Below are positions 2,939-27,806 of a stretch of 64,000 bases of DNA, piece after piece. Below the pieces are notes generated by a model, which saw only the letters and a list, made by a program, of their open reading frames with translations, made no database searches and was not told where the DNA came from. Made by a program: the position numbers and the translations under genes. Source of the DNA: Dictyostelium discoideum (Eukaryota); NCBI GenBank assembly GCA_000004695.1, contig CM000152.2, forward strand, positions 5,312,001 to 5,376,000, in the 5' to 3' direction. Numbering within the stretch: position 1 is the first letter of the stretch; each line of letters begins with the position of its first letter.

Positions 2939-5427
2939 TTATTTATTTTTAATTGGATTTAATTTGGAGTCTACCATTTTTTTAATTTCATAGTCTTGAT
3001 CAATAAAACAAGGTAATTGAGATTTTTCAAAATTGATTGCTTTTTTAAACCATTCTTTACTTTGTTCTAAATCATTATTCATAATATAAATCAAAGAGAT
3101 AAAATAAGATAATTCAGGTACTTTATAAGTGAACTCTTCTTTTATACTTTTATCAATATATGATTTAAATATTTGAATGATACCATTACAATCAGATTCT
3201 GAAATTGAACCACAATAAAATCTATTTACACCTTTATAATATAAATATTTTAATGGATAATCAAGTTCACCATCGCCACTATTACATGATTCAATGATTG
3301 AATTAAAATGTAATTGTGCAGATTTTGGATCATTATTTAATCTAAAATTCATTGCACGATAAAAAATGAATTCTAATTCATTTGGGAACTGTTTAATTGA
3401 ATCATTAATGAATTGATTAAAATTTGAAATTGGTTTTCTAATTGTTAAACATAATAATACTAATCTTGCATTTTTAATATCGTCTTCATTAACTTTATTA
3501 TTATTATTATTATTATTATTGGTTGTTGAATTATCAATAAACTTAATTAAACTATTAATAATTAAATTCTCTTTTGTTAATGGTATTCTAATTGAATGAT
3601 ATTCTAATTTTAATGCTTCAATTAAAATTTTATTTGCTTGAGTTAATTTTTCAATGTTATTATCATTAATATAATTTTCAAATAAACTAAGGAATTGATT
3701 CTTTAAATCCAATGTTTTAATTAATCTATTAATTTGTTTCTTTGAACCTTTATTCAATCTTTTAATTGAATTATATTCATATTGTTTAATTTCAAAATCA
3801 TATCTATCATCATTTTGAATCTTTTCATTCATTCTTTTACTTTGAATCTCTTCAATTGATTCACTATTACCAATTGTTTTAAATGTTTTATTTAAATCTT
3901 TACCTGTAAGTAAACAATATAATTTTTGACATTTTAAATTACCACTTTAATAATAATAATAATAAAATTAGTATATAATAATAATATATATTAAACTTAA
4001 TAAATTTGTACACTTACACAGAAGAACCTTTTAAAAGCATTGGTAAAATTATAGTATCCAAGATTGGTTTTGGTATATTTCTATTTGGAAAACTAAACAT
4101 AAATGCTAAAGTTGTTAAATGAAAACAATTTGAATTAAATAATGTGAATTGCTTTGTAACTAAACCAAAATAATATAAAGCACAAACATTATCAGCATCA
4201 AGATAACCACAACCATTGAAATATCTATAACCAATCTCTAATAGTATATTTGTAAATGTTGAATAAAATCTCTTTTTTTCAATTTCATTATAAGTTTCTA
4301 ATGGTTTTAATAATGATCCATTATATAATAAATCCATTGATAATTTATAATTATAAACTTTATTTAAACTATCATTACCATCGTTTGTATTAATATTATT
4401 ATAATCACTTAATTTTAATGATAATTCGTAAATTTTATCAATATCATTACTATTAATAATTGATTGAAATTCTAATGGAATTGGATTACTTTTAACATAT
4501 TCAATTGCTTTTAATTCGAAATTATCCATTTCCTTTTCTTGTTTTTCTTTTTCTTTTTTTTCTTTTTCTTGTTTTAAAGATTTCTCTAAAATTGTTGATT
4601 GTAATTGTTTATATTTTTCATTGTTAATTGAATCATTTGTTGATAATAATAATATTGCAATTTCTAAATGATTTAATGCTAAATTATAAAATGAATTATT
4701 ATTTTTACAAAGTAAAAATGCAATTTCATAATAACATTCAGAATTGAATGGATCATATGATAATGAATACTTTAATTTGTCAAGTGATATTAAATCTTTG
4801 TATTCCAATGTAACGATTTCATTATCAATACTATTTTTCGATTCGGTTAATTCTTTATAAATTTCATAATCACATCTTGATGATCCTAAATATCCAAATG
4901 ATTTAATTTTAAATAATTTTGATTCATCACCATAATCACCACCATCATCATTATTATCATTATTATTATTATTATCAATATCGATATTTTTACATAAAAT
5001 TAATTTTGAATTATAATATTCTAATGATTCTTTGAATTTTCTATTTTTAAATAATTCATTTGATTCGTTTATTAATTTTTTTGTAAATTCTTGATTTTCA
5101 TCAAATTCTTTATTACCACCATTGATAATTTGTCTAACTCTTTCTTTTGTGAAATATCCTTTATTTGAATTATTTAAAATTTCAATATTTTCTAATAATA
5201 ATTTTTTAATATTTTCAAATGTATCTATTTTATCTATATATATATATATGTTTTTTGAAAATTAAAATTTTATTAATTTATTTATAATTAATATATATAT
5301 CTTTTGGTAATTGAATGTGTATGATTAATTAAACTTACTATTTCTATCAATTAATTTTATAATTTCAATTGCTTTATTTTCAATTATTAGTTGTTGAGCA
5401 GACGGTAATGTTGATTTATTTTTATTA

Positions 5428-7633: not shown

Positions 7634-7904
7634 ATGTCTCTCTTTAGTAAATATCTTTAAAAAATTTAAAAAAAAAAATGATTAAATAGTTTATTTTATT
7701 AATTTTTTTTTTTAAAACAAAATAGAATCAATCTCATCAATTTCAAAAGTTAACACTACCTCTGCCAACAGTACTGTAACACCATCCAAATTAAATGATA
7801 ACCAATCATTTGGTGAAAATCAAGTTTCAACTGGTATTGTTAGTGGAATTGTCAGTGGATTATTATTTGATCTTGCAAATGTAACAAAAGGTTTAGGTCT
7901 TTAA
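7634..7904 (+). CDS. Tandem paralog of the previous small gene, 63 aa. Exon 1 is 7634-7646, intron 7647-7725 with GTAAAT donor, exon 2 7726-7904.
   Basis: About 85% identical exon structure and sequence to 6807-7082. Product MSLFKSISSISKVNTTSANSTVTPSKLNDNQSFGENQVSTGIVSGIVSGLLFDLANVTKGLGL*. Confidence 0.6.
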
Positions 7905-21661: not shown

Positions 21662-22846
21662 ATCACAAAAGTTTTGTTTGACTCACTTTATTAAAATGTC
21701 ATCTCAAACTATTTGGGGTGATACACTTTGCTTAGGTGTCACCGTGACAACAACATCAAACTCAACCTTCAATTCAAACAAATTATCCAGAACAACAACA
21801 ACCAAAATTAACACAATTAACATCAATTGAGATCTCTGCAAACTTGATTTTAGTAAATTTCTCTAAAATTTTATTTTTTTTACTTTTTTTTTCCTAGAAA
21901 TTAATTTTCAAATTTTTTTTTTTTACCTTGGAGGTTACCAAGATTTATTTTTTGTAACCTTCCAGTTTTTTTGAGTTTTTTTGAGTTTTTTTTATTTTTT
22001 ATTTTTTTTTTTTCTTAGTGTGTGTTGTTATAAAACAAATGTGTTCATATTTGTTTTAATTTTCCTCTCTTTTTTTTTTTAGTGTTTATTTATTTTTATT
22101 TTGTGTTCATTCTAACCAAGTCAAATATAAAAAGAAAAGAAAAAAAAAAAAAAGAAAGAAATAGAAAAAAAGAAAAGAAAAGAAAAGAAAAGAAAGAAAT
22201 AGAAAAAAAGAATAAAAATAATAATAAAAAAACTTTACAAATCATGTGAAAATAATAATAATAGTAATAAATCTGCTTTTATAAATTTTTTTTATTAAAT
22301 TTAAATAAAAAAAACAAATTAAGAATATATTTTTTTTGTTTTATTTTTAATTTTGAAATTTCATTTGATTTTTTCTCAAATAAAAGTAAATTATTTTTAT
22401 TTAAAATTAATTATTTGTTATCGAATAAAAAAAAAATTTAATTCAAAATAAATGAAAGTGACAATTCAAATTTATTATTTTTAAATTTAGTTTATTTTTA
22501 AAATTTACTTTTATAAACATTAAAAAGACTTGTTTTCAATTCAATGTAAAAATTTTCAATAAAAAAAACATTCATAATAAATTTTAGATATTGTCGATAA
22601 CATCAACTTATTATTTAAAAATAATCATGTTAAAAATTTTAATGTCTATTAAATATTTATTTTATTGATGACCTCACTACTTTCAAAATTTAATGCAGTA
22701 AATGGAGATCGAAGTAATAAACAAACAATCTATAAAAAATCTTGTTCAGGTTTGTTAATCTTGTTAATTCGTATTTTAATTTAAAATAATATATTTGATT
22801 AATTATTTTTATTATTTAATACTTCCCTCAGAACATTTATCTACAT

Positions 22847-22885
<39 letters not shown>

Positions 22886-23079
22886 TGGATTAACAAGATT
22901 GATATATGTCCATCTGTGTTAATACGAGTTTTATTTAATATTTATTTAAAGGCTTATCATTTAAGCTGAAGGGTTATTTTAATCATATGAATTGATCAAA
23001 AGATATAATATTTGGGAGAGATGATTCTGGTCTACATAATGGTGATGTTTTTGTATTATTTATTTATTTTTTTACAACA

Positions 23080-23090
23080 GGAGTCGAACC
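23080..23090 (-). promoter_or_regulatory. exB box downstream of tRNA-Ser copy 2
   Basis: ggagtcgaacc is GGTTCGACTCC on the minus strand, 32 bp past the tRNA 3' end. Confidence 0.6.
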
Positions 23091-23121
23091 TGTTATTATG
23101 TTTTGAATTTTGGAAAAATTT

Positions 23122-23202
23122 CGACACCTGCAGGGTTCGAACCTGCGCCTCCGAAGAGAACGCCTTAGCAGGGCGCCGCATTAACCACTTTGCTAAGGTG
23201 TC
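23122..23202 (-). tRNA. tRNA-Ser (GCU), copy 2
   Basis: Identical 81-nt sequence to copy 1. Confidence 0.85.
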
Positions 23203-23250
23203 ATCGAAAATAAAATGGGAGATACACTTTCCTAAGGTGTCATTGAATCA

Positions 23251-23527
23251 AAAAATAATCAGATCGAAAAAAACAAACAACAACAACAATCTCTTTTTTT
23301 GATTATTTCATTTTTCATATAAAAAAGACTTAAAAAACAAATAAATAAATAAATAAACTATTTTAAAAAGCCATCTTTTTACTTTATTGTAATTTATTAT
23401 TTGTTTCGTTTTGAGAATTTTGCGTAGCAAAATTTTCAAAAAAAAAGCAAAAAATAATCAGATCGAAAAAAACAAACAACAACAACAATCTCTTTTTTTG
23501 ATTATTTCATTTTTCATATAAAAAAGA

Positions 23528-23535
<8 letters not shown>
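23251..23535 (+). repeat. Two 86-bp direct repeats (23251-23336 and 23450-23535) flanking a 113-bp spacer, followed by a 44-nt poly(A) (23531-23574). Begins exactly 48 bp upstream of tRNA-Ser copy 2.
   Basis: aaaaataatcagatcgaaaaaaacaaacaacaacaacaatctctttttttgattatttcatttttcatataaaaaagacttaaaaaa occurs twice. Position is the canonical TRE5 integration distance. May be TRE5 5'-terminal A-module-like repeats or an independent insertion. Confidence 0.5.
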
Positions 23536-23574
<39 letters not shown>

Positions 23575-23578
<4 letters not shown>

Positions 23579-25280
23579 GGAACCAAGTTAATTAGAAAAT
23601 TTCCAGATTTTTAACTTTTTAAAGAAAAATAAAAAAGATAGAAAGAAAATAAAATGAAAATCCCAAACAACACCCCAAATATTAAGCAACACAAATGCCT
23701 ACAAAAAATAAGCGAAATTGTGGATAAAACTCAATTAAAAAAAAAACAATTCAAATACGTCATAAACATCAATCACGAACCAGACGATAAAATAAAAAAA
23801 GATTTAGAAAAAAGTTTGGACAAAAAAGATGTTTTAATCAAAAGTAATAATACATTCAAAATTCTCACAGACAGTATTAGTACAGTAATCTATTTTGTAA
23901 ATATGTTTGATGCAGAATTAAAAGGACAATTTATAACCACTATAAGACCAAAAAATATGTATACAGATTTTGATTGGTATAAATCACTCACAGAAATAGA
24001 ATGGGTAATAGAAAATGAAGGATGTAAACTAATTAAATCAGAAATTAAAGGCGAAACTCTAATTATCAAAACAGTGAAAAGAGTCGTAGAAGAATTTGAC
24101 ACTATCATTGAACTAGACAATCTAACATTAATTGGACACTCCAACAAAGGATGGAGAGATCAAACCTCATTACCAGAAAATCAAGAAGAAAACAAAAATA
24201 AAAAACAATCAGATGAACAACAACCACAATCTACATCAGAACAAATACCAAAACAAGGAAAAAGAACAATCATTATCCCACCAATCACATCCTCATCTAA
24301 TGATAAAACATTTATGGCCCTAGATGATACAGCTCAAAAGGTAATAGAAGCATCACTAGAAAACGTAGATGAACTAACAAGAATAGAGAATGAGATCAAT
24401 ACACAATCGATAAACAATCAAGAAATTAAAACAAAATCAGAAAAACCTATCGAACCACCATCTCCATACAATACACCAATAAAACAACACGGCGAAACAA
24501 AGGGACTAACAACGGAAGAAAAACTTAGAGAGGCAAATGATATCTTCGACTTCACCAGCCCAAACACTGATGCAATAAGAAAAATAGAATTCCCACTTTC
24601 AATCCCTTCAAATCAATGGTTCTTCTCCTCTCCAATAAAACATATCATGAGTTTCAGCCCAACCTATGGGCACCATCGAAAATTATCGATTCACCAAGTA
24701 AATTGTTAAACACACCAAAAAAGAAACAACAAGACAAAACAAACAAGACCAACAAAACACCAGTCAAACCAAAATTGGGTGAATATGGACAAAAAAGCAT
24801 AAAAACAAAAATGGATGAAGATATAGACAACTTCAACAAGGAAATTCTAAAACAAATCAATAAATCAAAAAACCCCACAAACACACAAGACCAACAACAC
24901 AACGAACAAAGTAAAGATCAGTTAGAAGACAAAATAAACCAGAAACTTCAAAAGGTAGATAAAAATCTACCCCAAATAAAACTATAAAGAAAAACACAAT
25001 AAGAATAGGTGTTTGGAACGTCCAAGGATCCAACACCATCCAATCTGCCAGCATAATAAACACCGTTTTAGACAACAACAAGCTGGACGCAGCACTTCTA
25101 ACTGAAACAAATATAAAAACAAATAAAATTTACTCAATAAATCAACAATATAAAAACAAAATAACACACCACGCACCAATTGATAAAACAGGACAAGGGG
25201 TGTCACAAATCATCATCAACACCCGCAATAGAACTTCCTAAACATCTCAAAAAATACAATAATTCACTCAGTACTTTTTA

Positions 25281-25340
<60 letters not shown>
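23575..25340 (+). mobile_element. TRE5-type non-LTR retrotransposon fragment. Short 5' leader, ORF1 (23654-24709, continuing after a +1 frameshift to 24987, about 445 aa total), the start of the ORF2 endonuclease domain (about 25000-25250), then a 60-nt poly(A) 25275-25340.
   Basis: ORF1 MKIPNNTPNIKQHKCLQKISEIVDKTQLKKKQFKYVININHEPDDK... ORF2 begins RIGVWNVQGSNTIQSASIINTVLDNNKLDAALLTETNIK, an APE-like IGxWNVxG motif. Location and orientation relative to the tRNA-Ser genes match TRE5 (DRE-like) elements. Assignment to the TRE5 family is from recalled knowledge. Confidence 0.6.
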
Positions 25341-25341
<1 letters not shown>

Positions 25342-25665
25342 CAAGTTAATCAGAAAAATAAAAAAGATAGAAAGAAAATAAAATGAAAATCACAAACAAC
25401 ACCACAAATATTAAGCAACACAAATGCCTACAAAAAATAAGCGAAATTGTGGATAAAACTCAATTAAAAAAAAAACAATTCAAATACGTCATAAACATCA
25501 ATCACGAACCAGACGATAAAATAAAAAAAGATTTAGAAAAAAGTTTGGACAAAAAAGATGTTTTAATCAAAAAGACCCTGTAAAAAAAAAAAAAAAATAA
25601 AATGAGATCTAGCATCTCAAGGAGAAGCAAATAATAATTGCGTTATCCAATTCAAAAAAAAAAAA
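25341..25665 (+). mobile_element. Second, internally deleted TRE5-type copy. 5' leader plus the first 65 codons of ORF1 (25383-25577) are joined directly to a 78-bp 3'-terminal module and oligo(A).
   Basis: Leader and ORF1 start are over 95% identical to 23589-23850. Junction atcaaaaag|accctgtaaaa. 3' module ...tgagatctagcatctcaaggagaagcaaataataattgcgttatccaattc(A)13 is identical to the mini-element at 27501-27590. Confidence 0.6.
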
Positions 25666-25968
25666 AGGTGTCATTGAATAAAATGGGATGATACACTTTG
25701 CTAAGATGTCATCGAAAACCAAATGGGTAATACACTTTGCTAAGCTGTCATCGAAAACCAAATGGGTAATACACTTTGTTAAGGTGTCATCGAAAACCAA
25801 CGGGTGATACACTTTGCTAATCTGTCATCGAAAAATATTTGGGTGGTAAACTTTGCTAAGGTGTCCACACAAAATATTTGGGTGATACACTTTGCTAAGG
25901 TTTCGTCGAAAAATATTTGGGTGATACACTTCGCTAAGGTGTCATTGAAAAATAAACCACCACAAGAC
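25666..25968. repeat. Tandem array of about 7.5 units of 38-40 bp. Each unit holds the revcomp of the first 17 nt of tRNA-Ser (including the A box) plus its immediate 5' flank.
   Basis: Units such as gatgtcatcgaaaaccaaatgggtaatacactttgctaag repeat. The same unit is present in 1-2 copies directly upstream of each intact tRNA-Ser gene. No complete tRNA is attached to this array. Confidence 0.8.
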
Positions 25969-27311
25969 TAATTTTTTGATAAATAATTTTTTTTTTATAG
26001 TTTTTATTGTTTTTTTTATTTTTTTTAAGAAAATGTGGCTGAATAATAATTTTTGAAACTATATTAAAATAAAAAATAATTAAAAAAAATACAAAAAATA
26101 AAAATAATCAGTAAAGTGATTTATATTTTTAATTTATAAAAAAATATAAAAAAAATGAATATACATTCTGCAAACTCGATTTGACTCCATTTGGTTTCTA
26201 ATTGTCTTAAAAATTATTTTTTTTATTTTTCCTTTTTTTTTTTCTTAATTTTTTAAAAAATAACAATAAATCTTACCCTATCAAAATTGTTATTTTTTTT
26301 TCTATTTTAGGATTTATTACATATTTAATTAATATAATTACTTTATTACTATTGTATTTTACAGTTGTAGTTTTTTTTATATAAGATGGCTCGAGATGAG
26401 TAACTGGACTGTCTAATTTTAGGAATTTAAAAAAAAAAATAAAAACTATTCAGAGAACCCAATTTCATTTTTAATTTTTTTTTTTTTTTTAGGGAGTTTA
26501 ATTCAAGAACAATTATAAACCATTTTAACTAATAATAATATAAGTTTTTTTTTTTTTTTATAATATTTTATAATATAAGTTGTTTTTTTTATTTTATTTT
26601 ATTTTTTTAATTATAATTAAATTTGTTTTTGAAATGCAGTTTTATTTAAAAATTCTAAGGTTTTTTCAATAAACTTTATTGAAAAATTTAGGGGAGTTAT
26701 ATGGCCATATATTTTCCTTAATGTCATGGTGCATAGATAAATCTTTCCTTTCTCTGACTTTAGATTAATATTGATTATTTTTATTTCCCTTTGGATATGA
26801 TAGTATTGATATGAACATTGATGTTTTAATAATACACATTTTTCAGCATTTCTATTGTAAAACAACACTTCTATTTAATTTAATGTCACATTTCATCAAC
26901 ACCAATATTTAACTTAAATTTTTTTTTTTTTTTTTTTTTTTTTGATTTTTTTTTTTTTTATAATTTTATTTTAATTTTTTTATATAAAAAGATATAATTT
27001 TTTTTTTTCATTTTATTATTAATTTAAAAAGGTAAAAAAAAAAAAAAAACATTTAGTAAAAACTTTACTTAAATAATCATGTTAAAAATTAATATCTATT
27101 AAATATTTATTTTATTGATGACCTCATTAAATTCAAATTTTAATACAGTCAACGGAGATCGAAGTGCCTGTATCTTAAATTGTGCTCATTAACAAACAAT
27201 TTATATAAAATCTTGTTCAGATTTGTTTATCTTGTTAATTCGTTTTTTATTTTTGTTACTAACATACTATTGATCTACAAATAGTAATAGTAAGCATTTT
27301 ATTTTTTCCAA

Positions 27312-27322
27312 CAGGAATCGAA
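27312..27322 (-). promoter_or_regulatory. exB box downstream of tRNA-Ser copy 3
   Basis: ggaatcgaacc is GGTTCGATTCC on the minus strand. Confidence 0.6.
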
Positions 27323-27365
27323 CCTGTTATTCAGCTTTGAATGTTGGGAAATTTTTGCAAAATTT

Positions 27366-27446
27366 CGACACCTGCAGGGTTCGAACCTGCGCCTCCGAAG
27401 AGAACGCCTTAGCAGGGCGCCGCATTAACCACTTTGCTAAGGTGTC
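27366..27446 (-). tRNA. tRNA-Ser (GCU), copy 3
   Basis: Identical 81-nt sequence to copies 1 and 2. About 170 bp of 3' flank (27066-27245) is homologous to the flank of copy 2 (22605-22770), so these copies sit in a segmental duplication. Confidence 0.85.
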
Positions 27447-27493
27447 ATCCAAAACCAAATGGGAAATACACTTTGATAAGGTGTCATCGAAAA

Positions 27494-27590
27494 ATCCAAT
27501 GACCCTGTAAAAAAAAAATAAAATAAAATGAGATCTAGCATCTCAAGGAGAAGCAAATAATTGCGTTATCCAATTCAAAAAAAAAAAAAA
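27494..27590 (+). mobile_element. Mini TRE5-type element (3'-terminal module plus oligo(A) only, about 94 bp). Flanked by a 13-bp target-site duplication gtgtcatcgaaaa (27481-27493 and 27591-27603), inserted 48 bp upstream of tRNA-Ser copy 3.
   Basis: Sequence gaccctgtaaaaaaaaaataaaataaaatgagatctagcatctcaaggagaagcaaataattgcgttatccaattc(A)14 is identical to the 3' module at 25574-25665. A perfect direct repeat of the flank sits on both sides. Confidence 0.75.
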
Positions 27591-27806
27591 GTGTCATCGA
27601 AAACCAAATGGGTGATAAACTTTGCTAAGGCGTCATTGAAAAATATTTGGGTGATGATTTTTTGTGAAATTTCGGCTGGAAGATAAAGAATTGCTTCATA
27701 AAATTTTAAATAAAAATGCTTTATTACCATTAATTAAAATTATAAATAAATAAAACAAATTTCAAAATTTAAATATAATATTACACTTTATTATTTTTAT
27801 TTTTAT

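Follow-up and report, generated by a model that had tools for sequence, protein, structure and literature searches.

The retrotransposon TRE5-A.2 of Dictyostelium discoideum, formerly named DREb, has been described since the early 1990s with the module order AB-ORF1-BC (ORF, open reading frame). We report here on a copy found in a 64-kb stretch of D. discoideum AX4 DNA (contig CM000152.2, positions 5,312,001 to 5,376,000; hereafter the window), in whose numbering all element coordinates are given; the element is already known and well described, and the copy, a slightly damaged one, belongs to the reference genome. For comparison, four loci (L001–L004) were taken from newer Dictyostelium assemblies other than AX4. 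TRE5-A.1 is organized as AB-ORF1/ORF2-BC, and TRE5-A.2 as AB-ORF1-BC, with a large deletion in ORF2 and a 72-bp deletion at the B/C junction that reduces the C-module to its 3′-terminal 87 bp (PMC3159450). The A-module is 200 bp long, and the 290-bp B-module, which holds the ORF1 start, has a second copy in the 3′ untranslated region (UTR); TRE5-B and TRE5-C have no 3′ B-module, and TRE5-B is also devoid of the C-module (PMC3159450). TRE5-A integrates 47 ± 3 bp upstream of tRNA genes in a strict orientation (PMC5391098), and the TRE5-A.2 subfamily is mobilized in trans by the ORF2 protein of TRE5-A.1 (PMC3159450, PMC5391098).

The segment 23249–25666 of the window is, with high confidence, one copy of TRE5-A.2, the non-autonomous, ORF2-deleted derivative of TRE5-A, placed by a single event of target-primed reverse transcription (TPRT). 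The module order A, B, ORF1, ORF2 stub, B, C, and A13 is complete, as published. The target gene, the target-site duplication (TSD), and the parts of the element are as follows.

23121–23203, minus strand: target gene, tRNA-Ser(GCU) copy 2 (ARAGORN)
23236–23248: left TSD copy, GGTGTCATTGAAT, 13 bp (exact 13-mer)
23249–25666, plus strand: whole TRE5-A.2 element, 2418 bp (from TSD and tail)
23249–23530, plus strand: A-module region, 1.43 units of a 199-bp repeat (from repeat identity and the arrangement in L004)
23531–23574, plus strand: internal A44 tract at the A/B boundary (also in L004 and L003)
23575–23866, plus strand: 5′ B-module, about 292 bp, with the ORF1 leader and ATG (23654) (segment duplicated at 25340–25573)
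23654–24987, plus strand: ORF1, 444 codons in intact copies, here split into pieces of 351 and 123 amino acids by a 1-nt deletion at about 24669
24984–25222, plus strand: ORF2 codons 1–79, start of the APE endonuclease region (BLASTP against L001; DNA collinearity with L004)
25223–25286, plus strand: deletion junction (ccg), then the final 20 ORF2 codons in a frame different from that of the N-terminal piece (matches to L001 and L004)
25287–25339, plus strand: internal A53 tract at the ORF2/B boundary (poly(A) at the equivalent place in L002 and L004)
25340–25573, plus strand: 3′ B-module (identity to the 5′ B-module; position as in L002 and L004)
25574–25653, plus strand: C-module remnant, 80 bp, with the TRE5-A.2-type B/C junction AATCAAAA / AGACCCTGT (aligned to the C 3′ ends of L002 and L004)
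25654–25666, plus strand: terminal A13 tail (right TSD follows directly)
25667–25679: right TSD copy, GGTGTCATTGAAT, 13 bp, directly after the A13 tail

The target is one of three tRNA-Ser(GCU) genes that ARAGORN places on the minus strand of the window. A perfect 7-bp acceptor stem (GACACCT/AGGTGTC), read off the reverse complement of copy 2, probably sets the +1 position of the mature tRNA at 23202. The first nucleotide of the element (23249) is therefore 47 nt from this position, and 46 nt from the tRNA 5′ end given by ARAGORN (23203); the element lies on the plus strand and the tRNA gene on the minus strand, so that their 5′ ends face each other. Both the distance and the orientation match the published behavior of TRE5-A, and place the copy where a member of this family is expected. 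An insertion next to tRNA-Ser copy 2 had been recognized in a preliminary description of this DNA, made from its sequence alone; its start is corrected here from 23251 to 23249, and its distance from the tRNA gene to 46–47 nt.

Both hallmarks of TPRT, a 13-bp TSD and a 3′ oligo(A) tail (A13), are present. Within the 64-kb window, the exact 13-mer is confined to the two ends of the element, at 23236 and 25667. A single TSD bracketing everything, together with a proper oligo(A) tail, defines 23249–25666 as one 2418-bp unit. The preliminary description had ended the element at 25340 and read it as a composite formed at this locus by tail-into-tail nesting or recombination. In such a reading, three pieces (an A44-ended short element, an A53-ended piece with ORF1 and the ORF2 stub, and a 5′ fragment of ORF1) would have been brought together by repeated integration or by recombination. 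The two long, pure poly(A) tracts, each followed by an identical leader, are compatible with this, and TRE5-A always integrates at about −47 and in the same orientation (PMC5391098), so that several insertions at one gene would pile up elements tail-to-head. However, neither internal poly(A) junction of the element carries a TSD, and the one perfect 13-bp TSD surrounds the whole. The third piece would be 3′-truncated and as such not a product of TPRT, whereas in fact the element runs on to 25666 through a 3′ B-module, the C-module, and the tail. The same internal junctions are also found in L002, L003, and L004 at unrelated loci. We consider an assembly from three pieces extremely unlikely.

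The architecture of these comparison copies bears directly on the internal poly(A) tracts. L004, from a D. discoideum isolate, is a full-length element of about 5.8 kb, located upstream of a tRNA-Asp gene at a distance of 49 bp, with its own TSD (AAATGATTTTCA) on both sides. Its 5′ end consists of a partial repeat, a 113-bp spacer, a repeat, poly(A), and a B-module beginning with CTGGGA, and its 3′ end of the ORF2 end, poly(A), B, poly(A), C, and A12. The 3′ end of L002, likewise a full-length copy, is like that of L004, and L003 shows a 62-bp piece of the repeat followed by poly(A) and B. Thus, the junctions A-repeat/poly(A)/CCTGGGAACC and ORF2 3′ end/poly(A)/CCTGGGAACC recur at other loci, which identifies the poly(A) tracts as family architecture. 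Because the layout in the window equals the published module order, what had appeared to be a second copy of ORF1 is the canonical 3′ B-module of the AB-ORF1-BC structure of TRE5-A.2 (PMC3159450). As noticed in the preliminary description, the leader and start of ORF1 do recur behind the second poly(A): the 3′ B-module is identical to the 5′ B-module at 220 of 222 positions aligned from 23623 onward, its leader being 36 bp shorter. The 5′ B-module carries two substitutions private to this copy (P4 and P8 in ORF1). In the full-length copies, the 3′ B duplicate reaches the equivalent of about 23866. The presence of B in both the 5′ and the 3′ UTR, together with a 3′ C-module, is the arrangement of TRE5-A.

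Upstream of the A44 tract, the direct repeats 23249–23337 and 23448–23536 are identical over all 89 positions and have a period of 199 bp, with 23338–23447 in between; they are slightly longer than the two 86-bp repeats recorded in the preliminary description, which had the period right and had also recognized the 44-nt poly(A). The arrangement of a partial unit, a spacer, and a further unit is common to the window element and the 5′ end of the full-length L004 element, and the 199-bp periodicity thus belongs to the A-module region of the element and not to host DNA. The period is close to the published length of the A-module, and the boundaries drawn here for this module are provisional.

ORF2 is retained only as residues 1–79 and 1123–1142, which corresponds to the large ORF2 deletion of TRE5-A.2. 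Codons 1–79 are identical to residues 1–79 of the 1142-residue ORF2 of L001 at 67 of 79 positions (85%, BLASTP), and the collinearity of the DNA with L004 stops at position 4562 of the latter. The next 61 bp (25226–25286) are the 3′ end of ORF2, corresponding to L001 residues 1123–1142 and L004 positions 7702–7760; in comparison with L004, 3139 bp of ORF2 (L004 4563–7701) are missing. The N-terminal part of the ORF2 endonuclease had been correctly seen ahead of the second poly(A), but the two are separated by this 3′ remnant. The ORF2 stub is accordingly the product of the internal deletion that defines TRE5-A.2, and not a poly(A)-terminated element. A Pfam search gave no match for ORF1 or the 85-residue ORF2 stub, and for the full ORF2 of L001 a match to RVT_1, with Exo_endo_phos only below the threshold. 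At the overlap of the two reading frames (24984–24987), both D. discoideum TRE5-A copies have ATAA (L004, about 4325), which provides the ORF1 stop codon TAA and no ATG for ORF2, and the L001 relative has ATGA (7728–7731). From these sequences, ORF2 of TRE5-A seems to be without an AUG where its L001 relative starts.

The B/C junction at 25565–25581 reads AATCAAAA / AGACCCTGT, and the end of B, the poly(A), and the start of C seen in L002 and L004 are absent from it. This is the B/C-junction deletion of TRE5-A.2, the length of the remaining C agreeing only approximately with the published one (80 versus 87 bp) in a comparison with copies from other strains. A reading frame of 66 amino acids spans the junction. 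The C remnant ends with GTTATCCAATTC, followed by A13 and GGTGTCATTGAAT, and carries T15, C26, A35, and C38 (counted from the 3′ end) as named in PMC3159450. The 3′-terminal 54 nt are predicted to fold with −11.3 kcal/mol (z = −3.1), and the four published mutation sites fall pairwise into two predicted stems; the hairpin region of the C-module is thus predicted to be intact in this copy.

The assignment to a TRE5-type insertion proposed earlier can be narrowed to TRE5-A by the sequence of ORF1, in addition to the named C-module nucleotides. Of the published TRE5-A ORF1 primers for quantitative reverse-transcription PCR (PMC4559204), Rep-109 matches exactly at 24098–24126, and Rep-108 matches at 23759–23785 except that the window has one base more than the primer as printed. 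Residue 10 is Ile, as named in PMC3159450, and the 351-residue frame (23654–24709) is 97–98% identical to four D. discoideum AX4 proteins of 375–444 residues, three of which have 442–444. A single frameshift between 24660 and 24710, as anticipated in the preliminary description, is explained by one nucleotide missing at about 24669 (TATGG-GCACC in the DNA alignment) from an ORF of 444 codons. At this site the window ORF1 reads SPTYGHHRKLSIHQVNC and then stops, the normal sequence being picked up in the next frame, whereas the four annotated AX4 ORF1 proteins spanning it all read SPTYGTPSKIIDSPSK. As these four are intact here, the frameshift is private to the window copy among the copies compared, in answer to the earlier question of whether other genomic copies share it. 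A premature stop codon in ORF1 lowered, but did not abolish, the mobilization of a TRE5-A.2-like test element (PMC3159450). From this published effect we infer an ageing, decaying copy with ORF1 cut at residue 351, at best inefficiently mobilizable in trans, and the frameshift itself argues for a reduced competence for mobilization.

Several details fit the assignment to TRE5-A.2 less well and weigh against it. The TSD sits within a family of 39-bp repeats, with near-matches of one or two mismatches nearby. There are 282 bp before the A44 tract, as opposed to the published 200-bp A-module, and the published 5′ UTR comprises A and “about half of B”, whereas the ATG here lies only 80 nt into the duplicated segment (a 79-nt leader). 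As the published module boundaries fit this copy poorly, the phase and naming of the A repeat are uncertain. The C remnant has 80 bp instead of 87 bp. The ORF2 breakpoints (25222/25226), moreover, were compared solely with full-length copies of other assemblies that are 85–89% identical. This last point leaves room for a history in which a full-length TRE5-A.1 was inserted, and ORF2 and the B/C region were deleted later and locally. Such a course would need two independent deletions of exactly the kinds that define TRE5-A.2 (PMC3159450); the same B/C junction (...ATC-AA-GACCCTGT) is also found in a separate 97-bp fragment at tRNA-Ser copy 3, and TRE5-A.2 is mobilized about as actively as TRE5-A.1 (PMC5391098). 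We regard local deletion as very unlikely, and retain the insertion of a ready-made TRE5-A.2 element.

As a TRE5-A.2 element, the window copy shares with the described subfamily the AB-ORF1-BC organization with both of its deletions, an insertion point some 47 nt upstream of a tRNA gene whose 5′ end faces its own, a TSD, and an oligo(A) tail; it differs in the private ORF1 deletion, the two private substitutions in the 5′ B-module, the shortened leader of the 3′ B-module, and the shorter C remnant. With TRE5-A.1 (L004), the copy has in common its 5′ region (A-repeat, poly(A), and B), ORF1, codons 1–79 and the final 20 codons of ORF2, poly(A) and B on the 3′ side, and the C 3′ end. What it lacks is about 3.1 kb of ORF2 (residues ~80–1122, including the reverse transcriptase), as well as the segment between the B end and the terminal 80 bp of C. 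TRE5-B, TRE5-C, and the L001 lineage have related ORF1 and ORF2 and belong to the same group targeting the upstream regions of tRNA genes; the identity of L001 proteins to those of the window element is 65% for ORF1 and 85% for the ORF2 N-terminus. In contrast to the window element, L001 shows no match to A, B, or C, and its ORF2 runs straight into A17.

By analogy with published work on the family (PMC3159450, PMC5391098, PMC5633606), the insertion would have started from a plus-strand RNA made from the A-module promoter. The ORF1 protein would contact TFIIIB bound upstream of the tRNA gene, and the ORF2 protein (endonuclease and reverse transcriptase), supplied in trans by a full-length TRE5-A.1, would nick the DNA about 47 bp upstream of the gene, where TPRT would copy the RNA from its C-module/poly(A) end.

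The idea of tail-to-head stacking may still describe the origin of the family, although not this locus. Tentatively, and with more doubt than conviction, we propose that the poly(A) tracts at the module boundaries (A/B, ORF2/B, and B/C) are fossils of the assembly of the TRE5-A family. Repeated hits at −47 in one orientation would stack elements tail-to-head on one tRNA gene, and read-through of such stacks could have captured the 5′ B-module of a neighbor and a C segment behind the old tail by 3′ transduction. An A segment with its poly(A) would likewise have been placed before an ancestor beginning with B, and the 3′ end of L001, where ORF2 passes into poly(A) with neither B nor C, would represent the ancestral 3′ end. 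Both the poly(A)-marked boundaries and the L001 end fit an earlier suggestion of C-module acquisition through 3′ transduction (PMC4559204), and we infer that this idea extends to the 3′ B-module.

The A repeats of the window element (23249–23337 and 23448–23536) and of L004 (2494–2580 and 2683–2770) differ by lineage-specific variants that the two repeats of L004 have in common, for example ATCAACAAACAAC versus ACAAACAACAAC and TTTCTTTTTT versus TTTCATTTTT. Since the repeats are identical within the window element and share variants within L004, the A repeat seems to have been either homogenized or re-created within element lineages. The 5′ monomer arrays of mouse LINE-1 offer an analogy, being also composed of promoter-bearing tandem units of about 200 bp, of which the outermost is incomplete, and showing greater similarity of units within than between element lineages. 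Unlike the monomers, which are unrelated in sequence and host, the window element has only 1.4 units, and their promoter role is putative.

The significance of this copy lies mostly in correct annotation: in TRE5-A, long internal poly(A) tracts and a repeated ORF1 start are intrinsic and are not to be scored as nesting. The poly(A)-marked boundaries, and the fact that L001 stops at the first of these poly(A), are of mild evolutionary interest.

When the element was compared with the 64-kb window by BLAST, the only other element-derived piece was a C fragment at 27498–27624, all remaining matches being poly(A)/poly(T) noise. Two short segments near the tRNA-Ser genes were also noted.

27494–27590: 97-bp 5′-truncated TRE5-A.2 3′ end, flanked at 27481–27493 and 27591–27603 by a 13-bp duplication, GTGTCATCGAAAA
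22849–23030: 182-bp insert beginning with T32, flanked at 22840–22848 and 23031–23039 by a direct repeat, TCTACATAA

Upstream of tRNA-Ser copy 3, at a distance of 48 nt, the 97-bp fragment joins the final 7 nt of B to the C remnant and A14, and it shares the B/C deletion junction of the main element. It is possibly an independent insertion at a paralogous site, or else the product of a deletion of a complete copy through AATCAAAAA microhomology; in the latter case, the once-complete copy could have been shared via a local duplication of the tRNA-Ser locus. The paralogous locus of copy 3 does not have the 182-bp insert, which lies about 85–90 bp downstream from tRNA-Ser copy 2 and resembles a 5′-truncated, TRE3-type non-LTR (long terminal repeat) insertion on the minus strand; a BLAST comparison with L001–L004 gave no informative match.

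A tandem array of 7.5 units of 39 bp follows the element at 25665–25956 (Tandem Repeats Finder score, 323). The unit is composed of the first ~20 nt of tRNA-Ser(GCU) and ~19 nt of its upstream flank, and one or two such units occur upstream of each of the three tRNA-Ser copies (23204–23248, 27448–27493, 27591–27650, and 21663–21740); the TRE5-A.2 element lies within the second unit. The loci of tRNA-Ser copies 2 and 3 are paralogous over several hundred base pairs with ~88–90% identity (22634–23273 versus 27084–27517); they have in common an external B-box-like motif on the downstream side, CAACAGGAGTCGAACCTGTT (23074–23093).

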